From assembly GCA_963847265.1 (NCBI GenBank), contig CAWJZE010000001.1, positions 1,545,056-1,569,055 of the forward strand: DNA of 24,000 bases. The letters run 5' to 3'. The notes under the pieces were generated by a model. That model made no database searches. It had not been told where the DNA came from and saw only the letters and a list, made by a program, of their open reading frames with translations. A program made the position numbers and the translations under genes. This document shows positions 3,095 to 11,858 of the stretch, in pieces; within the stretch, counting starts at the first letter, position 1; every line of letters begins with the position of its first letter. This stretch comes from an uncultured beta proteobacterium. GTDB lineage: Bacteria; Pseudomonadota; Gammaproteobacteria; Burkholderiales; Burkholderiaceae_C.

Positions 3095-4315
3095 ATGACA
3101 ACCCAACCCGAATCCCTGGGGATGTGCTCCCGGCGCCTGGCGCGCATCGACCGCTTCCTGGCCGAGCGCTACGTCGCGCCGGGCCGGCTGCCCTGCGCGC
3201 TGCTGCAGGTGGCGCGCGAGGGCCAGCTCGTGCACCAGACGGTGCTGGGCCAGGCCTCGCTCGAAACCGGCGCGCCGCTGGCCGAGGACAGCATCGTGCG
3301 CATCTACTCGATGACCAAGCCCATCACCAGCGTCGCCTTCATGATGCTGGTCGAGGAGGGGCGGGTGGCGCTCGACGACCCGGTGCACCGCTTCATCCCG
3401 GCCTGGCGCGACCTGGGCGTGTACCAGGCCGGCGTGCCCGGGGGCTTCCAGACCCGGCCCACCGAGCAGCCGATGCGCATGATCGACCTGCTGCGGCACA
3501 CCTCCGGCCTGACCTACGGCTTCCAGATGCGCACCAACGTCGATGCCGCCTACCGCGCCGGCAGGGTCGAGCCCTTCGAGCAGGCCGAGGGGCTCGACGG
3601 CTTCATCGACGGGCTGTCGAAGCTGCCGCTCGAGTTCTCGCCCGGCACCGCCTGGAACTACTCGGTCTCGACCGACGTGCTGGGCTACCTGGTCGGCAAG
3701 ATCTCGGGCGTTCCCTTCGACGAGTTCCTGCGCCAGCGCATCTTCCAGCCCCTGGGCATGACGGACACGGCCTTTCACGTGCCCGAGGACAAGGCCGGGC
3801 GACTGGCCGAGTGCTACCTGCAGTCGCCCTCGGGCCGCCTGGTGCCGGCAGGCGGGCCCAGCTTCCGCGCGCCGCCGGCAGCGCCTTCGGGCGGCGGCGG
3901 CCTGGTCTCCACCGCCGGCGACTACATGCGCTTCTGCGAGGCGATGCGCCAGGGCGGCGCCCTGGGCGACGTGCGGCTGCTGGGGCCCAAGACGGTCCGG
4001 CTCATGCGCGCCAACCACCTGCCCGGCCAGGGCGACCTGGCGGACCTGTCGGTGTCGCTGTTCTCCGAGGCCACCTACCGCGGCGTCGGCTTCGGCCTGG
4101 GCTTCGCCATGACGACCGACGTCGCCAAGACCGGCATCGCCGGCTCCGTCGGCGAATACTGGTGGGGCGGCATGGCCTCCACCGCCTTCTGGATCGACCC
4201 CGTGGAGGACGTGTGCGTGGTGTTCCTCACGCAATTCATCCCATCGAGCACGTACCCGATCCGGCGCGAGCTGCGCACCATGGTCAACGCCGCGATCATC
4301 GATTCGAAAGCCTGA
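3095..4315 (+). CDS. Beta-lactamase-fold serine hydrolase (family VIII carboxylesterase / EstB-like)
   Basis: Starts MTTQPESLGM after gaaagagacgacgATG. Carries the S-x-x-K motif (IYSMTKPITS), a Tyr motif (WNYSVSTDVLG), and WGG in place of KTG (EYWWGGMASTAFWIDP), as in family VIII esterases. About 406 aa. The longer listed ORF from 2933 is probably an upstream extension. Confidence 0.85.
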   Translation: MTTQPESLGMCSRRLARIDRFLAERYVAPGRLPCALLQVAREGQLVHQTVLGQASLETGAPLAEDSIVRIYSMTKPITSVAFMMLVEEGRVALDDPVHRFIPAWRDLGVYQAGVPGGFQTRPTEQPMRMIDLLRHTSGLTYGFQMRTNVDAAYRAGRVEPFEQAEGLDGFIDGLSKLPLEFSPGTAWNYSVSTDVLGYLVGKISGVPFDEFLRQRIFQPLGMTDTAFHVPEDKAGRLAECYLQSPSGRLVPAGGPSFRAPPAAPSGGGGLVSTAGDYMRFCEAMRQGGALGDVRLLGPKTVRLMRANHLPGQGDLADLSVSLFSEATYRGVGFGLGFAMTTDVAKTGIAGSVGEYWWGGMASTAFWIDPVEDVCVVFLTQFIPSSTYPIRRELRTMVNAAIIDSKA

Positions 4316-4432
4316 GCGAGGGCGCTGCTCCGGCGGTCCGCGCAAAGACGGTCCGACGGCCGCTGTGGGTGCCGGAGCCGCTGCCGGACGGTGTCGTCGA
4401 AGCCGGTGCGGCTCCCGGAGCAGGGGGCCGCG

Positions 4433-6511
<2,079 letters not shown>

Positions 6512-6584
6512 GTCAATGGCTCCTTCGCGGGTGCGTCCTTCGACGCAGGAAACAGCCGGCAAGCGAAGCGATGCCCTTTCGTGA

Positions 6585-6671
6585 AACACCGCGGAACCGG
6601 CTTTGCCGGGCCGCCGGTGTTGCCCCCGGCGAGGGGGTGGGCGGCCACACGCAGTGGGCAAGCCTGGGGGT
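6585..6671 (-). repeat. Intercistronic three-hairpin repeat, copy A (between livF and paaZ)
   Basis: aacaccgcggaaccggctttgccgggccgccggtgttgcccccggcgagggggtgggcggccacacgcagtgggcaagcctgggggt. By hand alignment it is roughly 85-90% identical to 7511..7600 and 10623..10713. In the transcribed sense it begins 3 nt after the livF stop codon (6675..6677). Confidence 0.8.
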
Positions 6672-6674
6672 GGC

Positions 6675-7400
6675 CTACTTTTTTCCGATCCCGAGGTAGG
6701 TGTCGATGATCCGCCGGTCGTGCAGCAACTCGCGCGCCGGGCCACTGAGTGCGACGGCGCCCATCTCCAGCACGTAGCCGCGGTCGGCCACCTGCAGCGC
6801 GGCGCGGGCGTTCTGCTCGACCAGCAGCACCGAGACGCCGTGCTGGCGCAAGGACGACACCACCTGCAGCACCTCGCGCACGATCAGCGGCGCCAGGCCG
6901 AGCGAGGGCTCGTCGAGCATCAGCAGGCGTGGGCGCGCCATCAGCGCGCGGCCGATCGCCAGCATCTGGCGCTCGCCGCCCGACAGCGTCGAGGCCAGCT
7001 GCGCGCGGCGCTCGCGCAGGCGCGGGAAGATCTGGAACACCTCGTCCATGCGCGCGCGCTGGTCGCGCTGGCCCTTGCGCCAGCGGTAGAAGCCGCCCAG
7101 CAGCAGGTTGTCCTCCACCGGCATGTCGCCGAACAGCTCGCGCTTCTCGGGCACCAGCGCCACGCCGCGCGCCACCATGGTCTCGACGCTCGGGCGCGCG
7201 ACGCGCTCGCCCGCCAGCGTGGCGACGCCGCGCGAGGGCAGCAGGCCCATGGCGGCGCACAGCAGCGTGGTCTTGCCCGCGCCGTTGGGGCCGATCACGG
7301 TGACGATCTCGCCTTCGGCGACGTCGAGCGCCACCTGGTGCACGGCCTCGACTGCGCCGTAGGAAACGCAGAAGTCTTCCAGCTTGAGCAAAGGAGTCAC
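6675..7400 (-). CDS. livF: Branched-chain-amino-acid-type ABC transporter ATP-binding protein (LivF class)
   Basis: [45 protein letters not shown] (Walker A), LSGGERQMLAIGRAL (signature), LLMLDEPSLGLAP (Walker B). Apparent GTG start at 7400. Confidence 0.9.
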   Translation of the reverse strand: MTPLLKLEDFCVSYGAVEAVHQVALDVAEGEIVTVIGPNGAGKTTLLCAAMGLLPSRGVATLAGERVARPSVETMVARGVALVPEKRELFGDMPVEDNLLLGGFYRWRKGQRDQRARMDEVFQIFPRLRERRAQLASTLSGGERQMLAIGRALMARPRLLMLDEPSLGLAPLIVREVLQVVSSLRQHGVSVLLVEQNARAALQVADRGYVLEMGAVALSGPARELLHDRRIIDTYLGIGKK

Positions 7401-7510
7401 AGAAGCCTCGCAGGCAGAGTGTCGATTTCACATGAACCGCCGCGCACCGCCGATCGCCGTCGAACCACGCTTTGCCCGCATGCCATGAAACACATGCGCC
7501 TCCTTCGGGA

Positions 7511-7600
7511 AACACCGCGGAACCGGCTTTGCCGGGCCGCTGGTGTTGCCCTCGGTGAGGGGGTGGGCGAAGCGACACGAAGTGCGCGCAGCCTGGGGGT
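7511..7600 (-). repeat. Intercistronic three-hairpin repeat, copy B (between livM::livG and livF)
   Basis: aacaccgcggaaccggctttgccgggccgctggtgttgccctcggtgagggggtgggcgaagcgacacgaagtgcgcgcagcctgggggt. In the transcribed sense it begins 5 nt after the livM::livG stop codon (7606..7608). Confidence 0.8.
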
Positions 7601-7605
7601 GAGCC

Positions 7606-9501
7606 TCATTCCACGCCTCCCAGGTAGGCGTCGAGGACCCGCTGGTTGGCCTGCACCTCGGCCGGCGTGCCCTCGGCGATCACGGTGCCGAATTCGAGCA
7701 CGGTGATGCGGTCGGCCAGGTTCATGACGAACTCCATGTCGTGCTCCACCACCAGGATGCCCAGCCCCTCGGCGCGCAGCTGGCCGAGCAGCGCAGCCAG
7801 CGCGCCCTTCTCCAAGTGGCGCAGACCGGCGGCCGGCTCGTCGAGCAGCAGCACGGCCGGCTGCCCGGCCAGCGCGCGCGCGATCTCGACGATGCGCTGC
7901 TGGCCCAGCGCCAGCGACGCGGCGGGCGCGTCGGCATGCGCGCCGAGGCCGACGCGCTCGATCTGGCGGCGCGCCTCGGCCAGCAGGGCCGCTTCCTCGC
8001 CGCGGTCGAGCCGCAGCATCGAGGCGATCCAGCCGCGGTGCGCGCGGCGGTGCGCGCCGAGCGCCACGTTCTCGACCACGCTGCGCTGCCCCAGGAGCCG
8101 CACGTGCTGGAAGGTGCGGCCCAGCCCGAGCGCGGCGAAGGCGCGCGAGGGGCGGTTCTGCATCGGCTGGTCCATCAGCCGCACCTCGCCCGCGCTGGTG
8201 TCGTCCACCCCCGAGATCATGTTAAAGAAGGTGCTCTTGCCGGCGCCGTTGGGCCCGATCAGCGCGTGCACCTCGCCCGCCTTGACGTTCAGGGTGACGG
8301 CGTTGTTGGCGACCAGCCCGCCGAAGCGCTTGGTCACGGCGTCGGCCTGCAGCAGCACCCGGCCCGCGGGCGGCAGCGCGCGCTGCGCCAGCGCGGCGCT
8401 GGCCTTTCGGGCCGCGCGCACCGGGGCGGGGCGCAGCAGGGGCGCGCTCCAGCGCTGCAGCGTCGGCCACAGCCCGGCGGCGAAGCGCTGCAGCACCACC
8501 AGCATCAGGAGGCCGAACACGATCACCTCGAAGTTGCCGCTGGTGCCCAGCAGCGCCGGCAGGATGTCCTGCAGCTTCTCCTTCAGCAGCGTGATCAGCG
8601 TGGCGCCCAGCACCGCGCCCCACAGGTGGCCGGCGCCGCCGACCACCGCCATGAACAGGTACTCGATGCCGATGTTGAGGTTGAAGGGCGTCGGGTTGAT
8701 GAAGCGCTGCAGGTGCGCGTAGAGCCAGCCCGAGAGCGCCGCCAGCAGCGCCGCCAGCACGAACAGCTTGACGCGGTAGCGCGCGGTGTCCACGCCCATC
8801 GATTCGGCCATGACGCGGCCGCCGCGCAGCGCGCGGATGGCGCGCCCCTCGCGCGAGTCGAGCAGGTTGTGCAGCAGCCACAGCGCCATGAACAGCACCG
8901 CCCAGATGACGACGCCGAGCGCGCGCGCCGAGGTCAGCGACCAGCCCGCGACGACCAGCGGCGGCACGCCGGTGATGCCGGTCTGCCCGCCCAGGAAGTC
9001 CATGTTGCCGAACAGGTAGTACAGGCTCAGGCCCCAGGCGATGGTGGCGAGCGGCAGGTAGTGGCCCGAGAGCTTGACCGTCACGGCGCCCAGCACCCAG
9101 GCGATGGCGAAGGTCAGCGCCAGCCCGAGCGCCAGCCCGACCCAGGGCAGCCCGGCCGGGCCGACCCAGCCGCCGAGCGCGGCGACCGGCCCCGGCGCGG
9201 TGCAGACCCACGCCGTGGCGTAGGCGCCGACGCCGACAAAGGCGGCCTGCCCGAAGGAGGTCATGCCGCCGACGCCGGTGAGCATCACCAGCCCGGCCGC
9301 GACCAGCGCGTACAGCCCGATGTAGCTCATCACGATGACGGTGAACTCCGGCAGCCATGGCCAGGCCAGCGCCAGCGCCGCGACGGCGGCGAGCGTGAGC
9401 TGGCGGCGCGTCAGCAGGCCACGCGGCGTGGCTGCGGCCTCGGCGGGCGGGGCCGCGGCGCGGTCGCCGGGGGCCAGGGTGCGATCGACGGGCGCGCTCA
9501 T
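7606..9501 (-). CDS. Fused ABC transporter permease (LivM-like) and ATP-binding protein (LivG-like)
   Basis: The N-terminal ~360 aa is polytopic membrane sequence (…[17 protein letters not shown]…[33 protein letters not shown]…). The C-terminal half is an ABC ATPase ([49 protein letters not shown]; Walker A about 8230..8256; [10 protein letters not shown]). The start ATG at 9501 overlaps the livH stop as ATGA (9498..9501), so I prefer it to the listed 9546. Confidence 0.85.
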
Positions 9502-10529
9502 TCCTCGTCCTCCTCGACGTGGTGGCTGCGCAGCGACCGCCACCACAGCACCGGGATGATCAGCGTGAACACCAGCACCTCCTTAAAAGCGCTGGCCCAG
9601 AAGGACGAGAACGATTCGAGCTGGCCGACCAGCAGCGCGCCGGCCAGCGCCGCCGGGTAGCTCGCCAGCCCGCCGACGATGGCCGCGACGAAGCCCTTCA
9701 GGCCGATCAGGAAGCCGGTGTCGTAGTACACGGTGGTGAGCGGCGCGATCAAGAGGCCCGAGACGGCCCCGATCAACGCCGCCAGCGCGAAGCTGAGGTC
9801 GCCCGAGAGCTCCGTCGGGATGCCCATCAGCCGGGCGCCGACGCGGTTCATGGCGGTGGCGCGCAGCGCCTTGCCGACCATCGAGCGCTCGAAGAACAGG
9901 AACAGCAGCGCCACCAGCGCGAGCGTGACGCCCAGCACCACCAGCGACTGGCCCGTCACCGGCAGGCCGCCCAGGTCGAAGCGCGCGTCGGAGAACGCCG
10001 GCGTGCGCGAGCCCTCGGCGCCGAAGAACAAGAGCCCCAGCCCGACCAGCACCCCGTGCAGCGCGACCGAGACGATCAGGAGGATCAGCACGCTGGCGTT
10101 GGCCAGCGGCCGGAACGCGAGGCGGTAGAGCAGCGGCCCGAGCGGCGTGATGAGCACCACGGTGGCGAGCGCCTGGCCGGCCAGCGAGGCCGGGCGCCAG
10201 CCGAGCACCAGCGCGCAGGCCGCGAGCGGCAGCGCCACGCACCAGGCGAGCGCGGCGGGCCAGTCCACGGTCGCGCCGCGCTTCCAGCGCCAGGCCTCGA
10301 CCAGCAGGGCCAGGCACGCCAGCACCAGCAGCAGCCACAGCGTGGCGGGCACGCGGCCGGCCTGCAGCATCGCCATCGACAGCGCGCCGAAGGTGACGAA
10401 CTCGCCCTGCGGGATGAAGATGACGCGGGTGACCGAAAACACCAGCACCAGCGCCACGGCCATCAGCCCGTAGACCGCCCCGTTGACGATGCCGTCCTGC
10501 CCCAGCAGCAGGGCGATCTGTGAATCCAT
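9498..10529 (-). CDS. livH: ABC transporter permease (LivH class)
   Basis: [50 protein letters not shown]… is a typical LivH N-terminus, and the protein is polytopic throughout. The acidic tail HHVEEDEE ends at TGA 9498..9500. Confidence 0.9.
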
Positions 10530-10622
10530 GGCGAACCTTTTGTTCGGGCCAGGCCCGTTTCATTCCAAGTCAGCAGCTCAACCTCACCTCACCTGACGCC
10601 CACCGCGCTGTCCCCTTCCAGG

Positions 10623-10713
10623 AACACCGCGGATCCGGCTCCGCCGGGCCGCTGGTGTTGCCCCCTGCAAGGGGGTGGGCGAAAGCGACACGCAGTGCGC
10701 GAAGCCTGGGGGT
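10623..10713 (-). repeat. Intercistronic three-hairpin repeat, copy C (between the SBP gene and livH)
   Basis: aacaccgcggatccggctccgccgggccgctggtgttgccccctgcaagggggtgggcgaaagcgacacgcagtgcgcgaagcctgggggt. Its last base is the first base of the SBP stop codon complement (tta 10713..10715). Confidence 0.8.
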
Positions 10714-11858
10714 TAGGGTTGATACTTCCAGGCCCCGTTCTCGATCTTGACCATGACGCGGGCGCGCTGGTCGAGCCCCAGGTGGTCGGTCGGCGACATC
10801 GTGAACACGCCGTGCGCGCCCGGCACCTCCTTGACCTGCTCCAGCGCATCGCGCAGCGCGGCACGGAACTCGGGCGTGCCGGGCTGCGCCTTCTTGAGCG
10901 CCACGGGAATCGCCGCCGTCATCAGCAGCCCGGCGTCCCAGGCGTGGCCGCCGAAGGTCGAGACGCTGCCCTTGCCGTAGGCCGCCTCGTAGGCCTTGAC
11001 GTAATCCGTGGCGGATTTCTTGACCGGGTTCGACGCCGGCAGCTGGTCGGCCACCAGCACCGGGCCGGCCGGCAGGAAGGTGCCTTCGACATCCTTGCCG
11101 CCCACGCGCAGGAAGTCGCCGTTGGCCACGCCGTGGGTCTGGTAGATCTTGCCGGCGTAGCCGCGCTCCTTGAGCGCCTTCTGAGGCAGCGCCGCCGGGG
11201 TGCCCGAGCCGGCGATCAGCACCGCGTCGGGCTTGGCCGCGATCAGCTTCAGCGTCTGGCCGGTGACCGAGGTGTCGGTGCGGCTGTAGCGCTCGTTGGC
11301 GACGATCTGCAGGTGCTTCAGCGCCGCGGCCTTGGCGAATTCCTGGTACCAGCCCTCGCCGTAGGCGTCCGAGAAGCCGATGTAGCCGACCGTCTTGACC
11401 CCGGCCTTGGCCATGTGGTCGGCGATGGCGAGCGACATCATGATGTCGTTCTGCGGGGTCTTGAAGACCCACTTCTTCTTGTCGTCCATCGGCTCGACGA
11501 TGCGCGCCGAGGCGGCCATCGAGATCATGGGCGTCTTCGCCTCCGACACCACGTCGACCATGGCGAGCGAGTTGGGCGTGACGGTCGAGCCGAGGATGAT
11601 GTCGGCCTTGCTCTCGCTGATGAGCTTGCGCGTGTCGGCCACTGCGGTGGTGGTGTCGGAGGCGTCGTCGAGCACGATGTAGTTGATCTTCTGCCCGCCG
11701 ATGGTCTTGGGCATCAGCGCGATCGTGTTCTTCTGCGGAATGCCGAGCGAGGCGGCCGGGCCGGTCGTCGAGATGACGACGCCGACGTTGACGTCGGCCT
11801 GCGCCGCGAGCGCGGCGGCGCACAGGGCGGCGAACAGCAGGGAAGCGCGGAATTTCAT
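10713..11858 (-). CDS. Periplasmic substrate-binding protein, Liv/type-I PBP family (candidate aromatic-acid binder)
   Basis: Start MKFRASLLFAALCAAALAAQA|DVNVGVVISTTGPAASLGIPQ, a Sec signal with AQA cleavage, preceded by ggagagacaacaATG. It has the type-I PBP fold signature throughout. The listed ORF running to 12437 is an upstream extension across the paaE 3' end. Confidence 0.9.
   Translation of the reverse strand: MKFRASLLFAALCAAALAAQADVNVGVVISTTGPAASLGIPQKNTIALMPKTIGGQKINYIVLDDASDTTTAVADTRKLISESKADIILGSTVTPNSLAMVDVVSEAKTPMISMAASARIVEPMDDKKKWVFKTPQNDIMMSLAIADHMAKAGVKTVGYIGFSDAYGEGWYQEFAKAAALKHLQIVANERYSRTDTSVTGQTLKLIAAKPDAVLIAGSGTPAALPQKALKERGYAGKIYQTHGVANGDFLRVGGKDVEGTFLPAGPVLVADQLPASNPVKKSATDYVKAYEAAYGKGSVSTFGGHAWDAGLLMTAAIPVALKKAQPGTPEFRAALRDALEQVKEVPGAHGVFTMSPTDHLGLDQRARVMVKIENGAWKYQP

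Follow-up and report, generated by a model that had tools for sequence, protein, structure and literature searches.

Among the repeats that lie between genes of bacterial operons, the repetitive extragenic palindrome (REP) in the malE-malF spacer sets the relative output of the neighbouring cistrons. Stop-proximal REPs of Escherichia coli, lying <16 nt from a stop codon, affect translation (Liang, Rudd & Deutscher 2015, as summarised in PMC12306157); according to PMC12306157, 260 of 496 E. coli REPs were stop-proximal in that study, against 446 of 4,072 in the set that it compiled itself. A separate family, the ~90-bp "Beta-proteobacterial repeat element" (BRE), has been described from Bordetella and the Comamonadaceae, with 29 copies in Polaromonas JS666, and was suspected of mobility and of variable-number tandem repeat (VNTR) behaviour, with no function assigned (Hot et al. 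2011, BMC Genomics 12:207; PMC3110155). Our literature search found BRE named elsewhere only in a review, which gives no function, and neither of the two papers mentions the placement rule described here. We analysed a 24,000-nt stretch of DNA from an uncultured beta proteobacterium (contig CAWJZE010000001.1, positions 1,545,056 to 1,569,055; hereafter the window), in which three copies of a three-hairpin repeat stand directly behind stop codons of an ATP-binding cassette (ABC) transporter operon. Judged by sequence homology, these repeats belong to BRE, in a Comamonadaceae form with a highly conserved third hairpin. This form lies family-wide in sense orientation behind the upstream stop codon, and its presence differs between orthologous operons and between close strains. 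We consider the best explanation, and on balance a probable one, to be that the repeats are mobile, co-transcribed inserts that fill operon junctions.

All three copies lie on the minus strand. A hidden Markov model (HMM) built from ten copies matched 6582-6671 (E 3.5e-21), 7508-7600 (E 1.5e-26) and 10619-10713 (E 8.5e-26) and gave no other significant match in the window (nhmmer), while a repeat search recovered a single three-member family at 6578-6643, 7504-7569 and 10616-10681, with 86-94% identity to the reference copy over 66 nt. The original prediction, made from the sequence alone, described three same-orientation copies set 0-5 nt past the stops of transporter genes, and this was borne out, with offsets of 0-6 nt after the livF, livM::livG and binding-protein stops. 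In the transcribed sense the junctions read TAA-CCCCC (binding-protein gene), TGA-GGCTCA-CCCCC (livM::livG) and TAG-GCCA-CCCCC (livF), as had been quoted. Likewise, the gene order and the ATGA overlap of livH and livM::livG (9498-9501), the sole copy-free junction of the operon, are upheld by the open reading frame (ORF) list, Pfam and a gene finder, and every hairpin coordinate previously given is correct. Two statements needed adjusting: whole-element pairwise identities (0.86 for copies B and C, 0.81 for A and B, 0.77 for A and C) fall somewhat below the 85-90% first estimated, and the copies, rather than filling the intercistronic gaps (181, 205-214 and 183 nt), each cover about half of one. 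The cores are 90-94 nt long with a G+C content of 71-74%, and are laid out as follows.

Copy A, behind livF: 6582..6674, minus strand; leader GCCA, C-run at 6666-6670, with TAG 4 nt before the C-run
Copy A hairpins, minus strand: hairpin 1 at 6644-6659, hairpin 2 at 6623-6637, hairpin 3 at 6585-6621 (from sequence and fold)
Copy B, behind livM::livG: 7508..7605, minus strand; leader GGCTCA at 7600-7605, C-run at 7595-7599
Copy B hairpins, minus strand: hairpin 1 at 7572-7587, hairpin 2 at 7549-7561, hairpin 3 at 7511-7547 (from sequence)
Copy C, behind the binding-protein gene: 10619..10712, minus strand; no leader, C-run at 10708-10712
Copy C hairpins, minus strand: hairpin 1 at 10685-10700, hairpin 2 at 10661-10675, hairpin 3 at 10623-10659 (from sequence)

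Relatives were gathered with a hairpin-3 pattern scan over one genome per species (at least 120 loci), to which plasmid loci and the window were added; copies without hairpin 3 are under-represented in such a sample. A seed HMM (nhmmer) identified 139 copies in the listed pattern loci, the plasmid loci and the window, spread over >100 loci and many Comamonadaceae and Sphaerotilaceae genomes. Genera among the matches listed include Variovorax, Polaromonas, Hydrogenophaga, Rhodoferax, Hylemonella, Curvibacter and Ramlibacter, as well as Roseateles, Rubrivivax, Rhizobacter, Aquincola and Ideonella, and blastn of plasmids placed copies on large Variovorax, Comamonadaceae, Diaphorobacter and Methylibium replicons. 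By its matches, the organism from which the window comes is itself Variovorax-like. From 5' to 3', the family is composed of a stop-proximal C-run, hairpin 1, hairpin 2 (CCCCC-loop-GGGGG), a 3' module of kind A or B and optional further hairpins, where module A is the nearly invariant hairpin 3 and module B an alternative. Hairpin 1 varies in sequence, having the tip CAC-UKC-GUG in types I and III and a short GCGCC-UUCG-GGCGC form in type II; the sublineage of copy A has a short linker between hairpins 1 and 2.

The original prediction could assign the repeat to no named family, and BRE fits by way of intermediate copies. An HMM of 17 Polaromonas-type copies matches both the published Bordetella BREs (E 6e-8 to 1e-4, over the C-run, hairpin 1 and hairpin 2) and the window copies (E 1e-9 to 4e-8), and we therefore regard the latter as BRE members through their 5' two-thirds. 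With a Bordetella BRE as query, plasmids of V. paradoxus and Acidovorax also gave matches, 68 nt long and 81-83% identical; for the V. paradoxus copy the identity is 81% (E 3e-5). Homology to the Bordetella element is confined to the 5' ~55-70 nt, and a direct comparison of a Variovorax HMM with a Bordetella BRE is non-significant (E 0.3). The Rfam search that had been proposed came back empty for every subtype: the window has no match at gathering thresholds, the surroundings of copies A and B yield nothing meaningful at E up to 10, and twelve related loci carrying all subtypes return one tRNA only. The earlier likening to REPs is borne out in so far as the element behaves as a dispersed repeat of that type between genes.

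Tandem arrays and module-B variants occur in three relatives (L123, L130 and L133), and the window copies are single units. In the same relatives (L123:5236-5620, L130:6379-6490 and L133:7231-7330) modules are shuffled between subfamilies: a Polaromonas-type array terminates in a unit with a Bordetella-like 3' module, and this module is joined to both type-I and type-III 5' parts at orthologous junctions.

The stop-codon adjacency first noticed at three junctions proved to be a family-wide rule. The C-run begins 0-12 nt past the upstream stop in 97% of 104 copies (median 5 nt), whereas a comparable C-run occurs at only 12% of other gene ends and only 8% of co-directional intergenic bases lie that near a stop. 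In co-directional contexts 76 copies are sense and 6 antisense. A further 20 lie between convergent genes, a context that carries no orientation information, and only 2 between divergent genes, whose spacers make up ~29% of intergenic bases. All five annotated plasmid loci follow the same rule. Copies essentially make up the whole of short spacers, and the distance from a copy to the next start ranges from about 10 to 120 nt.

The site is marked by no single DNA word. All three stop codons are used, and TGA, which we considered as a target, was rejected because TGA/TAG/TAA usage beside copies (64/20/16%) is close to background (75/13/12%). Nor is it marked by one kind of gene. The 84 upstream genes comprise 142 Pfam families, none found in >3 genes, with examples as varied as MreB, NuoH, carbamoyltransferases and flagellar rod proteins; the association with transporter genes that the original prediction drew is therefore incidental to the window. 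We had also taken long non-coding stretches beside copies as proof of targeting, and withdrew this, as most are locus ends or genes that the finder missed.

A metagenome scan for the Bordetella type (hairpin 2 followed by a U-run) returned 82 loci, many of them tandem arrays. These copies have no orientation bias (upstream gene co-oriented in 28 and opposite in 36), in line with Hot et al. (Table 3, List S1; PMC3110155). In the sense orientation the Bordetella form has the shape of a canonical terminator, which may explain its differing distribution. In the arrays themselves (L141-L222) the tandem units recur every ~75-85 nt; a single array contains as many as four exact matches to the pattern, alongside units that have diverged further, which agrees with the VNTR behaviour reported for Bordetella.

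Comparison of orthologous operons shows that junctions with and without the element coexist. We fetched six orthologous paa-liv operons via LivF homologues (~88% identity) and compared seven operons including the window, with the following occupancy.

Binding-protein gene to livH: filled in the window, Xylophilus Leaf220 (two copies) and one V. paradoxus; empty in four species, 29-49 nt
livMG to livF: filled in the window (module A) and Xylophilus (module B); empty in five species, ATGA overlap
livF to paaZ: filled in the window (type I, module A) and V. ginsengisoli (type III 5' part, module B); empty in the others, 5-30 nt

In Xylophilus sp. Leaf220 (L130) the last of these junctions is empty with an 8-nt spacer. 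Four more filled/empty sites were found among Variovorax chromid-like plasmids, with flanks 97% identical in three pairs and ~90% in the fourth. The insertions measure 156 nt at a TGATG overlap, 164 nt at a TGAGATG junction (with TTGA flanks), 78 nt at an ATGA overlap (module B, antisense) and ~140 nt at a 22-nt spacer. The notion that the element brings its own stop codon was dismissed, since in three of four filled/empty comparisons the stop position and protein end are unchanged, with 0-7 nt between stop and element.

The three window copies arrived independently. Their identity to copies from elsewhere (0.89-0.93) is higher than that among the three themselves (0.77-0.86), copy A being nearest to one in Variovorax humicola (L048, 0.91) and copy B to two others (L083 and L001, 0.92-0.93). 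Given these nearer kin elsewhere, and a copy A that belongs to a different sublineage, local duplication is not the source. A second dispersed copy is present in ~15% of sampled 8-kb loci (16/104), so that multiple copies in one operon are not rare, and adjacent copies usually share a strand (16 vs 7), inverted doublets not being the pattern. An operon-specific device, as the original prediction envisaged, does not agree with occupancy that differs among orthologous operons, subtypes that differ at the same junction and nearest kin that lie elsewhere. The element is neither a new class of RNA nor a transporter-specific regulator. The livH-livMG junction has an insert of another kind: this junction is an ATGA overlap everywhere except in Variovorax humicola, where a different 60-nt unit is present as two tandem repeats, each ending in ATGA, thereby duplicating the stop/start overlap (L135:4513-4632).

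Three insertions could be delimited as units of 155, 155 and 158 nt, corresponding to the core plus about 62 nt. These units end in YNTGGAGA, with the GGAG motif 7-8 nt before the downstream ATG at clean junctions. Flanking direct repeats were seen as a perfect 9-bp TGAGATGAA in one locus (L006) and a 4-bp TTGA in another (L007); duplications of ≤4 bp can be scored only where the right end is exact. The motif TTTCCTGCGTCG, located between copy A and the paaZ-like gene, recurs after unrelated type-I copies (L003/L005, L040 and, with one mismatch, L007). The motif TTTCCTGCGTYG (window 6532-6552, minus strand), with a small hairpin and a ribosome-binding site after it in that order, stands 30-45 nt past unrelated type-I copies at L003:2126, L005:2125, L007:2110 and L040 (minus strand; index 3138 in the reverse-complement sequence). 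This stretch probably belongs to the same composite element, as a 3' module, and the 3' extension of copy A (6494..6581) may belong to the inserted unit.

We hypothesize that the repeats are mobile or recently mobile DNA without terminal inverted repeats, and that each copy entered a different junction of the phenylacetate-cluster ABC-transporter operon separately, in sense orientation and directly behind the upstream stop. The inserted unit is longer than the 92-nt core, at ~155 nt where its ends could be delimited. It puts a structured spacer, rich in G+C, where stop and start were very close or overlapped, and in several copies its right end supplies a GGAG ribosome-binding motif for the next gene. 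Copies would be co-transcribed with the operon and folded as RNA, and such inserts may be tolerated in that they would not end transcription and would keep stop and start signals intact. Effects on the host would then be side-effects: by analogy with E. coli REPs <16 nt from a stop codon, the structure could act as a barrier to 3'-5' exonucleases and would stand within reach of the terminating ribosome. The placement at junctions may come about either because the element targets them or because insertions elsewhere do not survive.

Several observations weigh against mobile, junction-filling inserts as the explanation. Terminal inverted repeats in the three delimited units reach a best match of 8-9/20, which equals the shuffle mean (8.3-9.0), and flanking direct repeats of ≥7 nt are not enriched over controls (10.3% vs 9.4%). 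No gene for a transposase or associated enzyme was seen in any fetched locus. Losses instead of gains could explain some of the empty sites. The conservation of hairpin 3 is partly imposed, since loci were gathered by a hairpin-3 pattern, and the strict placement rule belongs to the hairpin-3 subfamily rather than to BRE as a whole, given that Bordetella-type copies lack it. Moreover, selection at the level of the host could equally account for the extreme strictness of placement, for a hairpin 3 that hardly varies among genera, and for the codon and stop changes beside copies described below.

A stronger version, that hairpin-3 BRE is a new kind of non-autonomous ~155-nt cassette that homes to gene junctions in the sense orientation, behind any type of stop, and carries its own ribosome-binding motif, is one that we advance only tentatively. 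The homing cue of such a cassette would be no simple DNA word; it might be strand exposure where translation ends or some other signal linked to transcription or translation. If so, a junction-specific element would be rewriting operon junctions in these bacteria, and the structure beside the stop may tune termination as a secondary effect.

Conserved base pairing bears on what the hairpins might be for. Hairpins 1-3 were tested on 64 distinct full-length copies, among which standard pairs occupy 92.8% of cells, against 40-45% when partners are slid. Two-sided changes occur at 13 of 26 pairs (125 cells), values reached by 0 of 500 shuffles. The compensatory C:G/G:C double change originally noted in hairpin 1 is real, its pair being the most covarying of the family (GC 28, UA 23, CG 6, AU 2), and four outer pairs of hairpin 3 covary strongly. 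Three-hairpin conservation thus stands, whereas the step taken from it to a structured RNA does not: non-Watson-Crick stem cells comprise 18 G.U and 24 A.C, with no G.U excess, and because the two are about equally common, the pairing cannot tell which strand or molecule is folded. Single-sequence folds beat shuffles only modestly (z -1.1 to -2.7). The data fit pairing that is kept between sublineages while individual copies look neutrally decaying. Hairpin 3 is imperfect, with a conserved C/UU internal loop and a conserved bulged N. Loop lengths differ by 1-2 nt between copies, so that no reading frame is kept, and a coding or relay ORF element was rejected for that reason.

One refinement of the mobile explanation takes the hairpins to be single-stranded DNA recognition sites for a hairpin-binding transposase or recombinase, whether HUH/RAYT-like or integrase-like. 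Strand bias and placement would then follow from exposed single strands, for instance immediately beyond the place where the transcript is no longer shielded by translation. The three delimited units without terminal inverted repeats would suit such an enzyme, as would the retained internal loop and bulge of hairpin 3, covariation between subfamilies without an RNA-type G.U preference, and the strong orientation bias relative to transcription. We nevertheless rate this refinement as improbable, as there is no constant 5' target oligonucleotide (stop usage being roughly background) and no enzyme gene was seen in any locus. No RAYT gene was seen beside copies in the fetched loci, and our literature search on RAYT/REP in Variovorax found nothing relevant. 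One annotated transposase does overlap a copy (L009:1438-2457, on the Methylibium plasmid RPME01), and it was discarded as a candidate: of its 339 residues, only an N-terminal IS3-type helix-turn-helix (residues 12-61) is recognisable, and the rest runs antisense through BRE-like sequence, so that it looks like an over-extended call of an IS3 OrfA.

The sequence around the stop codons hints at an interplay with translation. In the last three codons beside copies, A+T is 45% vs 32% (p 2e-12), an enrichment that falls mainly on third positions, with G+C there (GC3) at 0.61 vs 0.78 (p 5e-8), codons further upstream being normal. ATGA accounts for 39% of TGA stops beside copies vs 16%, an excess expected if overlapping stop/start junctions are frequent targets. 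At the binding-protein junction the two alleles with an abutting copy carry TAA, and the empty alleles, together with that of L132 (copy 7 nt past the stop), have TGA in the corresponding codon. The cleanest filled/empty pairs likewise keep the protein end while changing TGA to TAA and synonymous G/C to A/T. Two filled/empty pairs (L002 vs L136 and L007 vs L223), although ~97% identical elsewhere, also diverge sharply in the opening codons of the downstream gene. In 98% of 99 copies the first predicted base pair is ≤15 nt from the stop. These signs would fit an RNA-level effect linked to termination.

It might accordingly be proposed that the element is a host-selected cis-acting RNA, whose hairpins would, by analogy with stop-proximal E. 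coli REPs and the malE-malF REP, brake or destabilise termination (through stalling, mRNA cleavage and trans-translation) and/or shield the upstream cistron from 3'-5' exonucleases, thereby setting cistron output. The structure onset just given would suit this role, as would the sharp 12-nt cut-off in the distance from stop to C-run, the TAA-for-TGA exchange in abutting alleles with an unchanged protein end and lowered GC3, and the compensatory changes that conserve pairing. An ~80-nt RNA, BprJ1, overlaps a Bordetella BRE (PMC3110155). However, presence that varies between 97%-identical strains and subtypes that differ at one junction are unlike a conserved regulator, stems have no excess of G.U over A.C, and upstream genes come from every functional class. 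Furthermore, the first paired base of a minimum free energy fold is a weak measure, and nothing pairs consistently with the C-run itself (mean pairing probability 0.43). We therefore hold a host-selected RNA to be rather unlikely, if the most serious of the rivals to mobile inserts.

Two further proposals concern how the element might act on expression, and both fare worse. In the first, hairpin 3 is an intrinsic terminator or attenuator that ends or lowers transcription after each cistron, leaving more binding protein than permease. Hairpin 3 is indeed long and G+C-rich, Bordetella-type BREs have the canonical shape of hairpin 2 followed by U6, and the 20 copies between convergent genes essentially constitute the whole spacer there. 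Yet no U-tract follows hairpin 3 in the window copies or in the consensus (GGUGUUYCC), a terminator scan of 6300-10900 is empty at hairpin 3, and most copies lie inside operons between genes for subunits of the same complex, such as dctQ and dctM, where the start codon is 10 nt away. We judge termination by hairpin 3 very improbable. In the second proposal, the C-run serves as an anti-Shine-Dalgarno sequence that masks the next ribosome-binding site and is freed by the terminating ribosome. A terminating ribosome has the C-run within its footprint, and GAAGGRG-like runs follow type-I copies; still, the C-run is predicted to pair with the downstream ribosome-binding region at a mean of only 0.055, with values >0.5 in 2 of 60 copies, its pairing with the 3' tail averages 0.15, and the next start is about 10-120 nt away. 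Such a coupling switch is largely refuted by these predictions, and we judge it extremely improbable. The same low, unconserved pairing led us to reject a closing helix between C-run and 3' tail.

Gene calls in the window combine the ORF listing, Pfam and a codon-usage gene finder, which matches annotated stops in five deposited records. The genes and spacers around the copies are the following.

Binding-protein gene (Peripla_BP_6): TAA stop at 10713-10715, minus strand, from Pfam; the stop abuts copy C directly
Spacer from copy C to the livH start: 10530..10618, minus strand, from sequence; no alignment with the 29-49-nt spacers of empty alleles
livH: 9498-10529, minus strand, ATG at 10529 (ORF list, Pfam, gene finder)
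livM::livG fusion: 7606-9501, minus strand, TGA stop at 7606-7608; BPD_transp_2, ABC_tran and BCA_ABC_TP_C on a single ORF
Spacer from copy B to the livF start: 7401..7507, minus strand; holds a 32-codon ORF (7396-7494) behind a GGAGG motif
livF: 6675-7400, minus strand, GTG start at 7400, TAG stop at 6675-6677 (ORF list, ABC_tran match)
3' extension from copy A to the paaZ-like gene: 6494..6581, minus strand; motif TTTCCTGCGTCG, small hairpin at 6532-6552, GAAGGAG ribosome-binding site
paaZ-like aldehyde dehydrogenase/MaoC gene: 4433-6493, minus strand (ORF list, Pfam, gene finder)

The 32-codon ORF (7396-7494, minus strand) starts 5 nt past the GGAGG at the 3' edge of copy B, and its TGA overlaps the livF GTG (GTGA). 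It has no Pfam match and could be a chance ORF or a remnant of an ancestral overlapping livMG/livF junction; the spacer that holds it (7401..7507) might be inserted material or a remnant. Besides the window, all six orthologous paa-cluster operons (L130-L135) have the livM::livG fusion (~610-640 aa), the C-terminal tail of which varies in length and sequence past the YLGG motif. In the convergent spacer opposite the paaZ-like gene, at 4318-4365 (plus strand), a weak hairpin-3-like stretch, CCGGCGGTCCGCGCAAAGACGGTCCGACGG (HMM E 0.003), comes right after position 4315, where the plus-strand gene 3122-4315 has its stop; it may be a degenerate relic of a fourth copy.

What is new is a family-wide rule of sense orientation behind the stop codon in an element still polymorphic between close strains; to our knowledge, hairpin-3 BRE is among the most position-specific bacterial repeats. 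This raises the question of how a 155-nt element without inverted ends finds stop/start junctions, and whether stable structure at that site alters termination, mRNA decay or cistron ratios, as stop-proximal E. coli REPs might lead one to expect. For annotation, the element accounts for long G+C-rich intercistronic gaps in Variovorax and its relatives, and cautions against reading such gaps as operon-specific regulators.

Compared with BRE as described, for which a unit of ~75-91 bp is characteristic, the window repeats share the form of a ~90-bp G+C-rich intergenic repeat, dispersed and sometimes tandem, with some copies touching ORF ends, and their 5' two-thirds (C-run, hairpin 1 and the CCCCCC-loop-GGGGG hairpin 2) are homologous. 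They differ in the third module, which in the window is the conserved hairpin GCGGCCCGGCAAAGCCGGTTCCGCGG and in Bordetella a U-run with a GGCCGCGGGCC module. The complete Bordetella unit (U-run, GGCCGCGGGCC hairpin and A-run) is absent from the window copies, which have no A or U runs, and the window form obeys a strict sense, behind-stop rule that Bordetella-type copies do not.

REPs and bacterial interspersed mosaic elements of enterobacteria are co-transcribed, as we propose for BRE, and are likewise hairpin-forming and mosaic intergenic repeats at the 3' ends of genes; they can stabilise the upstream mRNA. However, REPs are single palindromes of 20-40 nt, usually in inverted pairs and in either orientation, whereas hairpin-3 BRE is ~92 nt long, consists of three non-homologous hairpins and has one orientation, with ~97% of copies stop-proximal. 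Elements resembling miniature inverted-repeat transposable elements, such as Correia/NEMIS, ERIC, RUP and BOX, are also short, non-coding, multi-copy, strain-polymorphic and intergenic; they are co-transcribed, as BRE would be, and some of them show orientation-dependent effects. BRE units differ from these in having no terminal inverted repeats (in the three units), no general target-site duplication and no TA-type target.

Lastly, integron attC sites resemble BRE as imperfect hairpins right behind the stops of ORFs, in the orientation of the ORF, with structure conserved above sequence. Upon sequence inspection, BRE is without the RYYYAAC/GTTRRRY core sites of attC, and its loci are not cassette arrays: the genes flanking BRE are ordinary operon genes, the orthologues of which lack the element.

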